Virus record (IMG/VR): IMGVR_UViG_2734482550_000011
Source of the DNA: a virus
Taxonomy: Duplodnaviria; Heunggongvirae; Uroviricota; Caudoviricetes
Strand: one strand, 5' to 3'
DNA: 8,511 nt
A program made the translations under genes and the position numbers. This document shows, piece by piece, positions 3,132 through 8,511 of this stretch (within the stretch, counting starts at the first letter, position 1; each line of letters starts with the position of its first letter). The notes under the pieces are model-generated. The model saw only the letters and a list, made by a program, of their open reading frames with translations. It ran no database searches and was not told the origin of the DNA.

Positions 3132-3940
3132 ATGCGTAAAGTTTGTGCAGCCATTTTGTCCGCAGCCATTTGCCTGGCCGTATCCGGTGCGCCTGCATGG
3201 GCGTCTGAACATCAGTCCACGCTGAGCGCGGGGTATCTTCATGCCCGGACCAACGTTCCCGGCAGTGATGATCTGAACGGGATTAACGTGAAATACCGTT
3301 ATGAGTTTACGGATACGCTGGGGCTGGTGACGTCATTCAGCTATGCAGGAGACAAGAATCGCCAGCTGACCCGTTACAGCGATACCCGCTGGCATGAAGA
3401 TTCCGTGCGTAACCGCTGGTTCAGCGTGATGGCGGGGCCGTCTGTGCGCGTGAATGAATGGTTCAGCGCGTATGCGATGGCGGGTGTGGCTTACAGCCGT
3501 GTGTCGACTTTTTCCGGGGATTATATCCGCGTAACTGACAATAAGGGGAAAACGCACGATGTGCTGACCGGAAGTGATGACGGTCGCCACAGCAACACGT
3601 CTCTGGCGCACTGACGGTTTCATCGTGGGTGTCGGTTANNNNNNNNNNNNNNNNNNNNNNNNNNNNNNNNNNNNNNNNNNNNNNNNNNNNNNNNNNNNNN
3701 NNNNNNNNNNNNNNNNNNNNNNNNNNNNNNNNNNNNNNNNNNNNNNNNNNNNNNNNNNNNNNNNNNNNNNNNNNNNNNNNNNNNNNNNNNNNNNNNNNNN
3801 NNNNNNNNNNNNNNNNNNNNNNNNNNNNNNNNNNNNNNNNCCCGACCGAATCCGTGGCCATTGATATTGCTTATGAAGGCTCCGGCAGTGGCGACTGGCG
3901 CACTGACGGTTTCATCGTGGGTGTCGGTTATAAGTTCTGA
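3132..3940 (+). CDS. lom: Outer-membrane protein Lom (Ail/Lom/OmpX family, lysogenic-conversion moron); interrupted by N-run, first segment ends at premature TGA 3612-3614
   Basis: ATG at 3132 preceded by GAGAGG (3121-3126). Product MRKVCAAILSAAICLAVSGAPAWASEHQSTLSAGYLHARTNVPGSDDLNGINVKYRYEF... is near-identical to lambda Lom as I recall it, with a signal peptide ending AWA. After the N-run the Lom C-terminus PTESVAIDIAYEGSGSGDWRTDGFIVGVGYKF plus TGA (3842-3940) is read in a different frame. Confidence 0.85.
3603..3930 (+). repeat. Exact 36-bp direct repeat (copies 3603-3638 and 3895-3930) flanking the lom N-run
   Basis: CTGGCGCACTGACGGTTTCATCGTGGGTGTCGGTTA occurs just before the N-run and again at the 3' end of lom. 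The first copy joins lom codon ...SLA directly to lom 3'-terminal sequence and creates an in-frame TGA. Confidence 0.9.
3639..3840. other. N-run (202 nt) inside lom
   Basis: Uninterrupted n characters. Intact lambda lom would need only about 24 nt (WGAGVQFN by my recall) between the flanking visible residues. Confidence 0.95.
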
Positions 3941-4004: not shown

Positions 4005-6929
4005 ATGGCAGTAAAGATTTCAGGTGTACTGAAAGACGGCACAGGAAAACCGGTACAGAACTGCACAATCCAGCTGAAAGCAAAACGTAACAGCACCACG
4101 GTGGTGGTGAACACGCTGGCCTCAGAAAATCCGGATGAAGCCGGGCGTTACAGCATGGACGTTGAGTACGGTCAGTACAGCGTTATTCTGTTGGTGGAAG
4201 GATTCCCGCCGTCACATGCCGGGACCATCACTGTGTATGAAGATTCCCGACCCGGTACGCTGAATGATTTTCTCGGTGCCATGACGGAGGATGATGCCCG
4301 TCCGGAGGCACTGCGCCGTTTTGAGCTGATGGTGGAAGAGGTGGCGCGTAACGCGTCCGCGGTGGCACAGAACACGGCAGCCGCGAAGAAATCAGCCAGC
4401 GATGCCAGCACATCAGCCCGTGAGGCGGCAACCCATGCGACTGATGCTGCAGATTCAGCACGTGCAGCCAGCACGTCAGCCGGACAGGCCGCTTCGTCGG
4501 CTCAGTCAGCGTCTTCCAGCGCAGGAACGGCATCAACAAAGGCCACTGAAGCCTCAAAAAGTGCTGCCGCTGCAGAGTCCTCAAAAAGCGCGGCGGCTAC
4601 CAGTGCCGGTGCGGCGAAAACGTTAGAAACGAATGCGGCAGCGTCACAACAATCAGCAGCCACTTCTGCATCCACCGCGACCACGAAAGCGTCAGAAGCT
4701 GCCACCTCAGCCCGGGATGCGTCGGCTTCAAAAGAGGCGGCAAAATCATCAGAAACGAACGCATCATCAAGCGCCAGTAGCGCAGCTTCCTCGGCGACGG
4801 CGGCTGCAAATTCTGCGAAGGCGGCCAAAACGTCCGAGACGAACGCCAGGTCTTCTGAAACGGCAGCGGGACAGAGTGCCTCAGCTGCGGCAGGCTCAAA
4901 AACAGCGGCTGCGTCGTCTGCCAGCGCCGCGTCAACAAGTGCCGGGCAGGCCTCAGCCAGTGCCACCGCCGCCGGAAAATCGGCAGAAAGCGCCGCATCA
5001 TCCGCTTCAACAGCCACAACGAAGGCTGGCGAAGCCACTGAGCAGGCCACGGCAGCAGCGAGGTCAGCTTCCGCAGCGAAGACATCCGAAACGAACGCGA
5101 AAGCGTCGGAAACCCGTGCAGAATCCTCAAAAACGGCTGCCGCATCGTCCGCCAGTTCGGCGGCGTCATCGGCATCATCGGCGTCTGCTTCAAAAGATGA
5201 GGCGACCAGACAGGCGTCAGCAGCGAAGGGCAGCGCCACGACGGCATCCACGAAGGCGACAGAGGCTGCTGGTAGTGCGACGGCAGCNNNNNNNNNNNNN
5301 NNNNNNNNNNNNNNNNNNNNNNNNNNNNNNNNNNNNNNNNNNNNNNNNNNNNNNNNNNNNNNNNNNNNNNNNNNNNNNNNNNNNNNNNNNNNNNNNNNNN
5401 NNNNNNNNNNNNNNNNNNNNNNNNNNNNNNNNNNNNNNNNNNNNNNNNNNNNNNNNNNNNNNNNNNNNNNNNNNNNNNNNNNNNNNNNNNNNNNNNNNNN
5501 NNNNNNNNNNNNNNNNNNNNNNNNNNNNNNNNNNNNNAATCCAGCTAAGCAGCGCGACCAACAGCACGTCTGAAACGCTGGCGGCAACGCCAAAGGCAGT
5601 AAAAGCAGCCAATGACAATGCTGAGAAACGTCTGCAGAAAGATCAGAACGGTGCGGATATCCCTGGCAAAGACACCTTTACGAAAAATATTGGTGCCTGC
5701 CGTGCCTTCGGTGGGTCAGTAAGCACAACAACAGGAAACTGGACGACTGCACAGTTTATCGAGTGGCTGGATTCTCAGGGAGCATTTAACCATCCATACT
5801 GGATGTGCAAGGGTTCCTGGTCTTATGGCAATAATAAAATCATTACTGATACTGGCTGCGGTAATATTCATCTCGCCGGAGCTGTCATTGAAGTAATGGG
5901 GATAAAGTCAGCGATGACGATCCGCATTACCACTCCGACCACATCCAGCGGTGGCGGAACAACCAACGCCCAGTTTACCTATATTAATCACGGAACAGAT
6001 TATTCACCTGGCTGGCGAAGGGACTATAACTCCAGAAATAAGCCAACGGCATCAGAGATCGGGGCGCTACCGTCAGGTGGAACAGCAGTATCATCAGTTA
6101 ATCTGGCTTCAAAAGGTCGGGTAGCCGCGCTGACAGACAATACGCAGGGGGCAGCAGGTCTTGAGTTATACGAGGTGTATAACAACGGATATCCAACAGC
6201 GTATGGAAATATCATTCACCTGAAAGGGATGACAGCCGTTGGCGAAGGTGAGTTACTCATCGGCTGGAGTGGTACAAGCGGTGCTCATGCTCCGGCATTT
6301 ATTCGTTCACGACGGGATACGACCGACGCAAACTGGTCGCCGTGGGCGCAGCTTTACACCTCGGCTCATCCTCCTGCAGAGTTTTATCCAGTCGGTGCAC
6401 CAATCCCGTGGCCATCAGATACCGTTCCGTCTGGTTATGCCCTGATGCAGGGGCAGACTTTTGACAAATCTGCTTACCCGAAACTTGCAGCCGCTTATCC
6501 GTCAGGCGTGATCCCTGATATGCGTGGCTGGACGATTAAGGGCAAGCCCGCCAGTGGTCGTGCCGTATTGTCTCAGGAACAGGATGGCATTAAATCGCAC
6601 ACCCACAGCGCCAGCGCATCCAGTACGGATTTGGGGACGAAAACCACATCGTCGTTTGATTACGGCACTAAATCCACGAATAACACCGGGGCGCATACGC
6701 ACAGTCTGAGCGGCTCTACAAGTTCAGCTGGGGCCCACCAACATAGTCAGACTGGGCCCAGAACGAATAGCGGGAGTCAACCTACTGGAATGTTTCCGGC
6801 AGGGAGTACTCAAGTTAGCGGGACTAATCAGGTTGGTATCAGTGGCTCATTAACCAGTGGCACCTCCCAATGGGTAGGTAAATCATCTTCAGAAGGAAAC
6901 CATACACACTCACTGTCCGGCACAGCAGC
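4005..6929 (+). CDS. stf: Side tail fibre protein Stf (long variant); internal N-run 5288-5537; 3' end lies inside N-run 6930-7191
   Basis: ATG at 4005 (the track starts at an upstream in-frame GTG 3999) preceded by GGGG. N-terminus [26 protein letters not shown]... matches lambda Stf as I recall it, followed by Ala/Ser-rich repeats. After the N-run the protein continues in frame 1 from about 5539 ([22 protein letters not shown]...) to the conserved Stf C-terminal region [15 protein letters not shown]...SHTHSASAS...GAHTHSLSG...[11 protein letters not shown], which runs into the next N-run. Confidence 0.85.
4380..5287 (+). repeat. Imperfect tandem coding repeats (Ala/Ser/Thr-rich, recurring K-T/S-SETNA units) within stf
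   Basis: Recurring units such as [35 protein letters not shown] and [19 protein letters not shown], with matching DNA repeats (for example gaaacgaacgc at several positions). The array continues into N-run 5288-5537. Confidence 0.8.
5288..5537. other. N-run (250 nt) inside the stf repeat region
   Basis: Uninterrupted n characters. Stf frame changes from frame 0 to frame 1 across it. Confidence 0.95.
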
Positions 6930-7191
6930 NNNNNNNNNNNNNNNNNNNNNNNNNNNNNNNNNNNNNNNNNNNNNNNNNNNNNNNNNNNNNNNNNNNNNNN
7001 NNNNNNNNNNNNNNNNNNNNNNNNNNNNNNNNNNNNNNNNNNNNNNNNNNNNNNNNNNNNNNNNNNNNNNNNNNNNNNNNNNNNNNNNNNNNNNNNNNNN
7101 NNNNNNNNNNNNNNNNNNNNNNNNNNNNNNNNNNNNNNNNNNNNNNNNNNNNNNNNNNNNNNNNNNNNNNNNNNNNNNNNNNNNNNNNNNN
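6930..7191. other. N-run (262 nt) covering the stf 3' end and tfa 5' end
   Basis: Uninterrupted n characters. By my recall of lambda, about 60 Stf residues and 32 Tfa residues are missing, about 276 nt, which is compatible with the run length. Confidence 0.95.
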
Positions 7192-7679
7192 TTCCGCCTC
7201 ATACAGGTCTGCCTGCAAACAGTACCGATATTGCACCGCCAGATATTCCGGCTGGTTTCGTGGCTGTTTTCAACAGTGATGAGTCATCGTGGCATCTCGT
7301 TGAAGATCATCGGGGTAAAACGGTTTATGACGTGGCTTCCGGCGACGCGTTATTTATTTCTGAACTCGGCTCATTACCGGAAAATGTCACCTGGTTATCC
7401 CCGGAAGGGGAGTTTCAGAAGTGGAACGGCACAGCCTGGGTGAAGGATACGGAAGCAGAAAAACTGTTCCGGATCCGGGAGGCGGAAGAAACAAAAAACA
7501 GCCTGATGCAGGTAGCCAGTGAGCATATAGCGCCGCTTCAGGATGCTGTGGATCTGGAGATCGCAACGGAGAAAGAAACCTTGTTGCTGGAAGCTTGGAA
7601 AAAGTATCGGGTGTTGCTGAACCGTGTTGATACATCAACTGCACCGGATATTGAATGGCCAGTAGCACCTATAGGGTAA
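7192..7679 (+). CDS. tfa: Tail fibre assembly protein Tfa (chaperone), 5'-partial, start hidden in N-run
   Basis: Frame 0 from 7194 reads [59 protein letters not shown]...[21 protein letters not shown] with TAA at 7677-7679, near-identical to lambda Tfa from about residue 33 as I recall it. The track ORF 7260..7679 is its tail, starting at an internal GTG. Confidence 0.85.
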
Positions 7680-7760
7680 ATTCGTAATGATTACCTAAAT
7701 ACGTTATTCTTTTGTTAAAAAAGTGATTTTGCTATAGGTAGGGAGTATGTTCTTGGATTA

Positions 7761-7795
7761 AGAATAAAAAATCGCCATGAAAGAGCTTCATGGCG
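7761..7795 (-). terminator. Rho-independent terminator for a leftward (minus-strand) transcript
   Basis: On the minus strand, stem CGCCATGAA, loop GCTCT, TTCATGGCG (plus coordinates 7773-7795), followed by ATTTTTTATTCTT. A 9-bp GC-rich stem in otherwise AT-rich DNA. On the + strand the hairpin is not followed by a T-run. Confidence 0.55.
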
Positions 7796-7944
7796 AGTAC
7801 ATAAACGTACAAAATGTGATGAAAGTAGAGTGGCGTAAGCCACTATATTAAGATATGACAATAGCGAAGAAAAGTAAATAACATTTTATGGACGTTTAAT
7901 TGTTAATTATAAAAACTAGAGTGCCCGATATTGTTTATCTTGCT

Positions 7945-8046
7945 TTAAAATAATGTACTCAAACCAAATTTTTGAGCTAAAAGCTCAAATAATATAAATG
8001 CAATAATAATGTTTAATAAGACAATTAGCTTGCTTTGTATTTTCAT
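7945..8046 (-). CDS. Hypothetical 33-aa hydrophobic small protein (MKIQSKLIVLLNIIIAFILFELLAQKFGLSTLF)
   Basis: Minus-strand ATG at 8046 to TAA at 7945, below the track's ORF size cutoff. Basic N-terminus followed by about 20 hydrophobic residues (one predicted TM helix or a signal peptide). It lies between a promoter-like motif and the minus-strand terminator. No clear Shine-Dalgarno; could equally be the signal-peptide remnant of a decayed gene. Confidence 0.2.
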   Translation of the reverse strand: MKIQSKLIVLLNIIIAFILFELLAQKFGLSTLF

Positions 8047-8080
8047 TTCGGAATACTGTTAAGTAACTTTGATGACCCTA

Positions 8081-8109
8081 ACAATAGATCGGAATTTTCT
8101 TAGAGTCAA
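8081..8109 (-). promoter_or_regulatory. Candidate sigma70 promoter for the leftward small transcription unit
   Basis: Minus strand TTGACT (plus 8104-8109), 17-nt spacer, TATTGT (plus 8081-8086), about 35 nt upstream of the small-ORF ATG. Such motifs arise easily by chance in AT-rich DNA. Confidence 0.2.
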
Positions 8110-8428
8110 TGGTCACTGTTTTTGCTTGCAAAGCAAATGTTTTGGTGGTTATAAGTCGTCTTAATATAGTCACGCATGCAACTTGTTCCATGCGGAGATT
8201 AAAGATTGGAATATAACGCGAAGATGGAATTAAATTACATTTGCAATAATTAATTTATTATTACTCAATAATTACCGATATTATTATTGTAAATTAATCA
8301 TTAGAATGCAAAAAGAAATGTAACGGCAAAATAAGAGGACGATAGCTGAGAAAAAAGCGTGCTTTCCCAATCTGGGGCAAATCACGTCTGAATGACACCT
8401 GAAAACAGGTGGTAGCCTCAAGAAGGCT

Positions 8429-8511
8429 GGTGATGCTGCCAACTTACTGATTTAGTGTATGATGGTGTTTTTGAGGTGCTCCAGTGGCTTCTGTTTCTAT
8501 CAGCTGTCCCT
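8429..8511 (+). mobile_element. IS1 insertion sequence, left end (partial, continues beyond the window)
   Basis: GGTGATGCTGCCAACTTACTGATTTAGTGTATGATGGTGTTTTTGAGGTGCTCCAGTGGCTTCTGTTTCTATCAGCTGTCCCT matches the IS1 left terminus as I recall it, including the terminal inverted repeat GGTGATGCTGCCAACTTACTGAT. Confidence 0.85.
8484..8511 (+). CDS. insA: IS1 InsA, N-terminal 9 codons (3'-partial)
   Basis: GTG at 8484 followed by GCT TCT GTT TCT ATC AGC TGT CCC, encoding (M)ASVSISCP, the InsA N-terminus as I recall it. Confidence 0.75.

Follow-up and report, generated by a model that had tools for sequence, protein, structure and literature searches.

YncL of Escherichia coli K-12 (b4598, 31 amino acids) is a stress-induced inner-membrane protein whose production leads to sublethal membrane depolarisation, as is the case for YohP, to nucleoid condensation, and to sensitisation towards pore-forming peptides; its gene is induced by heat shock and minimal medium, and the protein lowers viability when it is produced early (PMC12542507). 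YncL is also a candidate substrate of RseP (PMC10470546). In Salmonella, the orthologous gene lies in STnc1110, a locus that was first catalogued as a small RNA (sRNA), and a translational lacZ fusion revealed that its expression needs sigma-S (PMC5437024). A diverged copy of another host small membrane protein, YebO, is encoded by gene 15 of phage HK97, the first moron described; its product gp15 is made from the prophage and keeps the DNA of other phages from entering, i.e. it brings about superinfection exclusion (PMC3594210). The present study concerns a stretch of 8,511 nucleotides from the caudoviricete virus record IMGVR_UViG_2734482550_000011 in IMG/VR, the whole of which is called the window in the following. 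Downstream of its tail fibre assembly gene tfa, the minus strand of an AT-rich tract holds an open reading frame (ORF) of 33 codons. Judged from sequence comparisons, this ORF is a genuine and so far unannotated prophage-borne gene for a YncL-like small membrane protein in a moron-type unit. We consider it probable that the segment from position 7680 to about 8257 is a prophage moron, situated just after the last tail gene, transcribed towards that gene and counter to the late operon, and encoding a YncL-like inner-membrane peptide.

In its architecture, the unit comes closest to HK97 gp15. In both cases, a gene for a small membrane protein of a host family forms an autonomous unit in the lambdoid tail-gene region, and both units show a promoter and a terminator belonging to the unit itself and a deviant GC content, as reported for gp15 (PMC3594210) and, in the unit described here, with promoter and terminator as predicted from sequence signals. 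[quoted passage not shown] Furthermore, exclusion activity has been demonstrated for gp15, while for our unit it is a proposal by analogy. The lambda morons lom and bor, which are known from lysogenic conversion, encode outer-membrane or lipoprotein products of about 100-200 amino acids, unlike the predicted 33-residue peptide of inner-membrane type. With respect to YncL, the peptide is of the same length class (33 versus 31 amino acids) and has, as YncL does, one hydrophobic span preceded by a short polar N-terminus. Yet yncL is a chromosomal gene, whereas the unit found here is prophage-borne and AT-rich, and its 148-nt 3' untranslated region (UTR) ends in a canonical terminator. The locus joins two known kinds, the small proteins of YncL type on the one hand and, on the other, those morons whose product is a diverged small membrane protein of the host; as such, it represents typical phage cargo and not a new type of system.

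The 33-codon open reading frame and its similarity to YncL

The original prediction, which was made from the letters of the window without database searches, described the DNA after tfa as an AT-rich tract without any ORF of 60 or more amino acids and placed a 33-residue ORF on the minus strand, from 8046 down to 7945. Both observations hold; beyond the stop at 7679, no ORF of that length occurs. For comparison, three sequence clades were distinguished: the main type, a second one (91-94%), and the 78% type, which is known from 22 genomes and includes the homologue L008. Start, stop, and the length of 33 codons are the same in every complete copy examined from these clades, and in two short metagenomic contigs an A-run of the ORF contains a one-base insertion. 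Between the window type and the 78% type, the ORF differs at 18 nucleotides, of which 11 are synonymous and 7 non-synonymous; the proportions of differing synonymous (pS) and non-synonymous sites (pN) amount to 0.56 and 0.088, which gives a pN/pS of 0.16 (binomial p=1.5e-4) and reveals purifying selection. From the intermediate clade come five more synonymous changes and one more that is non-synonymous. All five other frames over the ORF hold stops.

None of the other ORFs of the tract (48, 37, 35, 26, 24, and 22 amino acids) behaves in this way: in L008, each is missing or broken, or differs by non-synonymous changes alone. The 37- and 35-residue ORFs at 8116..8257 have no counterpart there, and all four changes between clades in the 24-residue plus-strand ORF, which runs across the terminator and the 3' UTR, are non-synonymous. 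In the phage records PhiR70_1 and ev099, an ORF of 37 and one of 55 amino acids are annotated, respectively; neither is conserved. Based on the substitution pattern, the 33-codon ORF is a real gene for a small hydrophobic protein. Residues 7-24 of the predicted peptide are hydrophobic, with the exception of N12 and E21.

The original prediction recognised no specific family for this peptide, and here it has to be corrected. The NCBIfam profile NF000537 ('stress response membrane protein YncL'), an equivalog model with a curated cutoff of 35 bits, matches the three alleles with 25.0, 23.5, and 22.5 bits (E 1.3e-5 to 7.5e-5), with peptide residues 1-28 aligned to positions 1-28 out of 30 in the profile. 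BLASTP aligns the peptide with K-12 YncL (MNVSSRTVVLINFFAAVGLFTLISMRFGWFI) without gaps from Met1 onwards, with 11 identities and 18 positives in 28 positions (E 2e-7 for the pair); the two proteins share S5, V9-L10, N12, A16, L19-F20, L22, and a [KR]-F-G motif. The Smith-Waterman score of 60 compares with 20-23 +/- 4-5 in shuffles that preserve composition or segments (z about 7-9), and at most 1 in 20000 shuffles reaches 60. None of 18 controls gave a match to YncL, neither the ten versions of the peptide that were shuffled or reversed nor eight natural proteins that are likewise small and hydrophobic but unrelated (YohP, TisB, ShoB, LdrD, ZorO, DinQ, YoaJ, and MgtS).

Pfam, PHROGs, and PADLOC yield no meaningful match for the peptide, and a literature search with its sequence found none. 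A phmmer scan of 1.84 billion proteins retrieved the ORF and a variant of it with a +1 frameshift, and nothing else; at this database size, YncL could not reach significance. Searches of phages by tblastn, with the peptide as well as with YncL, gave no match even in known carrier phages and are uninformative; a low-complexity filter is suspected. A resemblance to yncL of the form CCGnnCTAT...TAGGG, which had been spotted by eye, is not significant.

Expression signals, distribution, and the preferred reading

The -35/-10 pair and the clean intrinsic terminator that the original prediction had read on the minus strand are both present (Table 1); for the terminator, the limits of 7761-7795 given there deviate by at most one base from ours. 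In L008, TTGACT-17-TATCGT occupies the position homologous to the promoter-like site and is the sole promoter-like match in 740 bp. The C just before the -10 element (TCTATTGT) is kept in the diverged clade as well, and it might fit the use of sigma-S; this is a weak suggestion drawn from the reported sigma-S dependence of yncL. Terminator-like sites are more frequent than expected by chance (two, as against 0.5 in shuffles). The strong one is kept in position both in L005, a ydfJ-type prophage, and in L008, and its stem is invariant save for one change from G.U to A-U, which leaves pairing intact on the minus-strand RNA only. A hairpin at 7971-7989 was considered as an internal terminator and rejected, given that it is not flagged in L008.

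The stretch 7690-8200 is found in 831 of 5426 complete E. coli genomes (about 15%), with up to four copies and always on the chromosome. Three phage genome records, namely mEp332, PhiR70_1, and ev099 (two accessions), contain the block too; other ORFs are called there, never the 33-codon one. The prophage contexts of the block are likewise three in number, i.e. the bio side, ydfJ, and the sit locus, and the homology across contexts runs from the tfa stop to about 8257. Behind the block, the ydfJ and sit contexts have a 3' remnant, about 100 nt long, of another tfa, which is the signature of an illegitimate recombination joint. One or two such remnants occur there in the same orientation (L005 5578-6732; L008 4578-4677), which suggests that repeated illegitimate joins at the 3' end of tfa stack cargo segments. 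Two pattern scans of IMG/VR returned 48 loci, all from clades already known, and no further diverged homologue.

According to the definition of Juhala/Hendrix, as summarised in PMC3594210, morons are recognised as DNA that is extra in comparison with related phages and sits at a gene boundary, with deviant GC content, with a promoter and a terminator of their own, and with expression from the repressed prophage. The block described here begins right at the tfa stop; a Tfa-anchored scan of GTDB species-representative genomes gave 53 Tfa-encoding loci, many of them on lambda-like contigs, and none of these loci has the block. Its GC content is 0.28-0.33 over 7651-8400, compared to about 0.50 in tfa. 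The predicted promoter and the terminator are consensus matches whose positions are conserved in the 78%-identical homologue. Optional presence together with foreign composition therefore marks the block as optional phage cargo. The compact leftward moron-like unit of the original prediction is thus supported by composition, by presence and absence among related phages, and by the conserved position of both signals.

From these observations, we infer transcription, translation, membrane insertion, and a physiological effect as follows. From a promoter of sigma-70/sigma-S type, transcription would set in near 8074 and run leftward to give an RNA of about 310 nt; this RNA would encode a single-pass inner-membrane peptide of 33 amino acids, a distant paralogue of YncL. 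Translation would go ahead despite the absent Shine-Dalgarno sequence, and the peptide would enter the inner membrane. The RNA would stop at the strong intrinsic terminator, which might also spare tfa from antisense read-through. Made in the lysogen, the peptide may exert a YncL-like effect on membrane energetics from within the inner membrane and, by analogy with YncL, whose production dissipates part of the membrane potential, either tune stress or dormancy physiology or hinder incoming phages.

Several points weigh against this reading. The first of them concern the relation to YncL. The NF000537 scores lie under the curated cutoff, while K-12 YncL itself reaches 68.6 bits; DNA similarity to K-12 yncL, be it in the ORF or in the promoter, does not go beyond that of shuffles; and there is no synteny, with the order patD-yncL-ortT in K-12 and a prophage site downstream of tfa here. 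For these three reasons, we call the ORF product, as far as sequence comparison goes, a distant prophage-borne YncL paralogue and not an orthologue. A second set of points touches expression. K-12 yncL has the Shine-Dalgarno sequence AAGGTGG, whereas the prophage ORF has none in either clade (the bases before the start read ...AACAGTATTCCGAA-ATG); the number of promoter-like sites in the tract, five, is no higher than chance (4.1 +/- 2.6 in shuffles); and we found neither expression data for the block nor a transcriptome of a strain that carries it. Moreover, the diversity is small, with three clades from E. coli only, and the selection test comprises about 23 substitutions. RefSeq has no annotated feature over the block in any of the E. 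coli genomes listed, and an exact look-up in about 15 billion proteins retrieves the 33-residue protein as called on one contig only, and an A24D variant on one more. Finally, the natural deletion variant L118 is devoid of the gene, as expected of dispensable cargo.

It is only recently that functions have begun to be assigned to YncL and other small membrane proteins, with sublethal depolarisation and 'metabolic silencing' among them (PMC12542507). The moron described here adds one unannotated gene to hundreds of genomes, as a diverged and selected copy on active temperate phages, and would be, next to HK97 gp15/YebO, a second case in nature in which a phage captured and diverged a host small membrane protein. 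It also offers a simple experimental handle on the action of YncL-type peptides. As unannotated small proteins in prophages, including cases of this very kind, were explicitly predicted in 2012 (PMC3594210), the find is incremental and not surprising.

Possible alternatives: type I toxin, regulatory RNA or relic

What is more difficult to assess is whether the unit is controlled as a toxin. The original prediction had likened it to type I toxin-antitoxin (TA) loci; this likeness stands for the small hydrophobic peptide and is not supported beyond it: no antisense promoter is conserved, and no toxin model matches. A locus of this type would encode a depolarising peptide toxin, the translation of which is held off by an antisense or trans-acting RNA or by hok-like long-range base pairing of the start region with the 3' UTR. 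Such an explanation overlaps with the YncL-like moron and adds a specific control layer and toxicity; we regard it as unlikely, if less so than the explanations that follow. Like Hok, TisB, DinQ, ZorO, ShoB, and Ldr, the peptide is hydrophobic, shorter than 50 amino acids, and by analogy a probable actor in the inner membrane; its N-terminus is short and charged, and its relative YncL depolarises the membrane (PMC12542507). Both the absent Shine-Dalgarno sequence and the long 3' UTR are unusual in a simple small gene. Within the mRNA, the start region finds its best pairing partner in each of the three clades at a homologous site of the 3' UTR (transcript positions of about 194-196), where one double change from A-U to G-C and several one-sided changes restore pairs; however, pairing energies of -8.5 to -10.5 kcal/mol are equalled by 28-68% of the shuffled controls. 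On the opposite strand, a promoter-like site at 7855-7884 (ATGACA/TAACAT), present in the window and L005, would yield an RNA antisense to the ORF, but it is not found in the diverged homologue L008, and a conserved plus-strand terminator is missing from the window, L005, and L008. Unlike the toxins named above, the unit has neither a sequence match among the type I toxin models of NCBIfam, Pfam, and PADLOC nor, as far as the promoter-like sites show, a conserved antisense RNA gene. In the literature, we found no description of yncL as part of a type I TA pair.

Somewhat more doubtful is the view that the functional product is an RNA, i.e. that the terminator-proximal 95 nt or so act as an sRNA, derived from the 3' UTR or made independently, and that the ORF is secondary or incidental. 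A regulatory or antisense RNA within the roughly 150 nt between stop and terminator had been raised as a possibility in the original prediction. The part of the unit that is best conserved lies next to the terminator: 7765-7845 (81 nt) is 94% identical between clades, compared to 82% for the ORF and 63-78% for the remaining UTR, although 56% of the synonymous sites in the ORF differ. In the linker at 7797-7831, 34 of the 35 positions are identical in the diverged homologue. An alifold consensus predicts a hairpin, an open linker of 33 nt, a small hairpin, and the terminator; with its U-rich single-stranded linker and its U-tail, this layout resembles Hfq-type sRNAs. One-sided changes in the stems keep pairing on the minus-strand RNA only, and the Salmonella precedent of STnc1110 points in the same direction (PMC5437024). 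On the other hand, the ORF is under clear protein-level selection and homologous to YncL, and L052 from the intermediate clade carries a terminator of the L008 type, so that mosaic exchange may explain the high identity. The U-tail is interrupted (CUUUCUUAUU) in two clades, a two-sided compensatory change is seen in no stem, and the natural variant L119 is devoid of 7833-7912 within the 3' UTR. Neither a convincing internal promoter nor an Rfam family was identified; at E values up to 1, Rfam reports for the window, L001, and L005 only IS009 in tfa and its remnants as well as tRNA-like fragments, and the unit is unmatched. The anti-sRNAs from prophages of enterohaemorrhagic E. coli (EHEC), i.e. 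the AgvB/AsxR class of 51-60-nt sRNAs with convergent pairs at the PR' moron site and a conserved 3' region of about 42 nt (PMC4104026), were considered as a model and rejected; the site differs (after tfa, not after Q/PR'), and the features given there are absent.

A phage-borne, hok-style gated membrane toxin strikes us as improbable: the YncL-like peptide would be a depolarising effector, its start region, devoid of a Shine-Dalgarno sequence, would be closed by pairing with the conserved 3' UTR until the mRNA is processed, and the freed terminator-proximal RNA of about 95 nt would act in trans as an sRNA. If true, the unit would be an abortive-infection, exclusion or dormancy switch for the lysogen, and a widespread family of 'stress' small proteins would be drawn into phage-host warfare.

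Very improbable, lastly, is a non-functional relic, be it the N-terminal leftover of a decayed longer gene (the signal-peptide remnant that the original prediction offered as its alternative, and which is rejected on the same grounds) or a chance ORF in H-NS-silenced AT-rich DNA: annotation pipelines skip the ORF in RefSeq and in the phage records, it has no Shine-Dalgarno sequence, and promoter-like hexamers arise by chance in AT-rich DNA, but stop and length are the same across clades under purifying selection, the alignment with a 31-residue protein runs from end to end, a full scan of 1.84 billion proteins yields no longer one with the N-terminus of the ORF, and no longer annotated gene lies over it in the rows listed for the 831 block-carrying E. 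coli genomes.

The surrounding prophage sequence

Table 1. Positions of the unit's features and of its neighbours in the window
Feature	Position	Strand	Remarks
tfa (tail fibre assembly gene), visible 3' part	7192..7679	+	left neighbour of the unit; ORF 7260..7679; 5' part N-masked; 'tail fiber assembly protein' in the RefSeq annotation of the corresponding locus
Intrinsic terminator of the leftward unit	7762..7796	-	11-bp stem with 3-nt loop (7796-7772), then TTTTTTATTC
3' UTR (148 nt)	7797..7944	-	5-6-bp hairpin (GTGGCTTACGCCAC, 7832-7845) and 35-nt linker (7797-7831); possible sRNA-like 3' end
Predicted gene of 33 codons (plus stop), YncL-like single-pass small membrane protein	7945..8046	-	MKIQSKLIVLLNIIIAFILFELLAQKFGLSTLF; based on conservation, substitution pattern, and profile match
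Putative 5' UTR (about 28 nt)	8047..8074	-	start near 8074 placed from the -10 position; no Shine-Dalgarno sequence
Promoter-like site	8081..8109	-	-35 TTGACT (8109-8104), 17-nt spacer, -10 TATTGT (8086-8081), C just before the -10; also in L005
Upstream part of the shared block	8116..8257	none	no conserved ORF; possibly regulatory; homology of the three genomic contexts stops near 8257 (alignments)
AT-rich spacer	8258..8343	none	confined to the lambda-attB (bio-side) context
Conserved segment (170 bp or more), left part	8344..8428	none	segment near the right end of other lambdoid prophages; cut by IS1
IS1 left end (GGTGATGCTGCC...)	8429..8511	+	element name from the RefSeq annotation of the identical junction

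The window represents the right arm of a lambdoid prophage with the genes J, lom, stf, and tfa, all on the plus strand. In complete E. coli genomes, the same arrangement occurs, identical, at the lambda attachment site beside ybhB and bioA. The stop codon of tfa is at 7677-7679. Four stretches of the window are masked by N (1240-1560, 3640-3850, 5280-5540, and 6900-7191); as a result, the ORF list breaks up J, lom, stf, and also tfa, in its 5' part, into artificial fragments.

Two observations relate to tfa. Inside its coding sequence, at 7441-7639 on the plus strand, lies a full-length match of 218 bits to the Rfam family IS009 (RF02111), and weaker IS009 matches correspond to the tfa 3' remnants of the ydfJ-type prophage (L005 5572-5647 and 6211-6402); what is catalogued as an 'RNA family' apparently corresponds to a conserved piece of the coding sequence in tail fibre assembly genes. 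During the Tfa-anchored scan, we also noticed that many 'species representatives' (from Chromatium, Pseudomonas, Shewanella, Neobacillus, Streptomyces, and further unrelated taxa) contribute low-coverage contigs with a Tfa 95% identical to the query (L059-L073 and others), and that some of these contigs are about 48.4-48.5 kb long. Most likely, they reflect contamination of the assemblies by phage lambda or E. coli.

The AT-rich tract stops at 8428 because the left end of IS1 follows directly. In strains free of IS1, unannotated DNA runs on for about 1.5 kb up to the gene of an AraC-family regulator. IS1-bearing strains are devoid of about 550 bp found in the IS1-free strains (L002 5749-6516 versus L001 5749-6299), including a 3' fragment similar to tRNA-Ser; the insertion was therefore accompanied by an adjacent deletion.

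The conserved segment cut by IS1, which measures at least 170 bp, contains two short hairpins (CACCTG-AAAA-CAGGTG and AGCCT-CAAGA-AGGCT). In addition to the copy in the window (8344-8428), it is present in L001 (5654-5800), in L006 and L007 (4001-4150), and in L102 (4344-4490). Elsewhere, the segment lies beside NleG-type effector genes near uspF/ompN and, in strain 042, beside zinT; about 500 E. coli genomes possess it without the YncL-like block.

The tRNA-like 3' fragment (…GGGGGTTCAAATCCCCCTCTCTCCGCCA) is situated at L001 5860-5925, past the AT-rich tract and ahead of the gene for the AraC-family regulator; it lies outside the window and was lost in the IS1 event. ARAGORN predicts no full tRNA for L001 5860-5925, and Rfam gives only sub-threshold matches to a T-arm and to antisense trnS. 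We take the fragment to be the 3' part of the tRNA-Ser gene serU; it is probably the att-site scar of a serU-integrating element, which would make this prophage end a composite. The prophage-borne AraC-family regulator gene itself (L001 6506-7249) follows the tract in the bio-side context and in the phages PhiR70_1 and ev099, adjoins fragments of IS2/IS3-type transposases, and is possibly a relative of the AraC-like acid-resistance regulators described from EHEC prophages.

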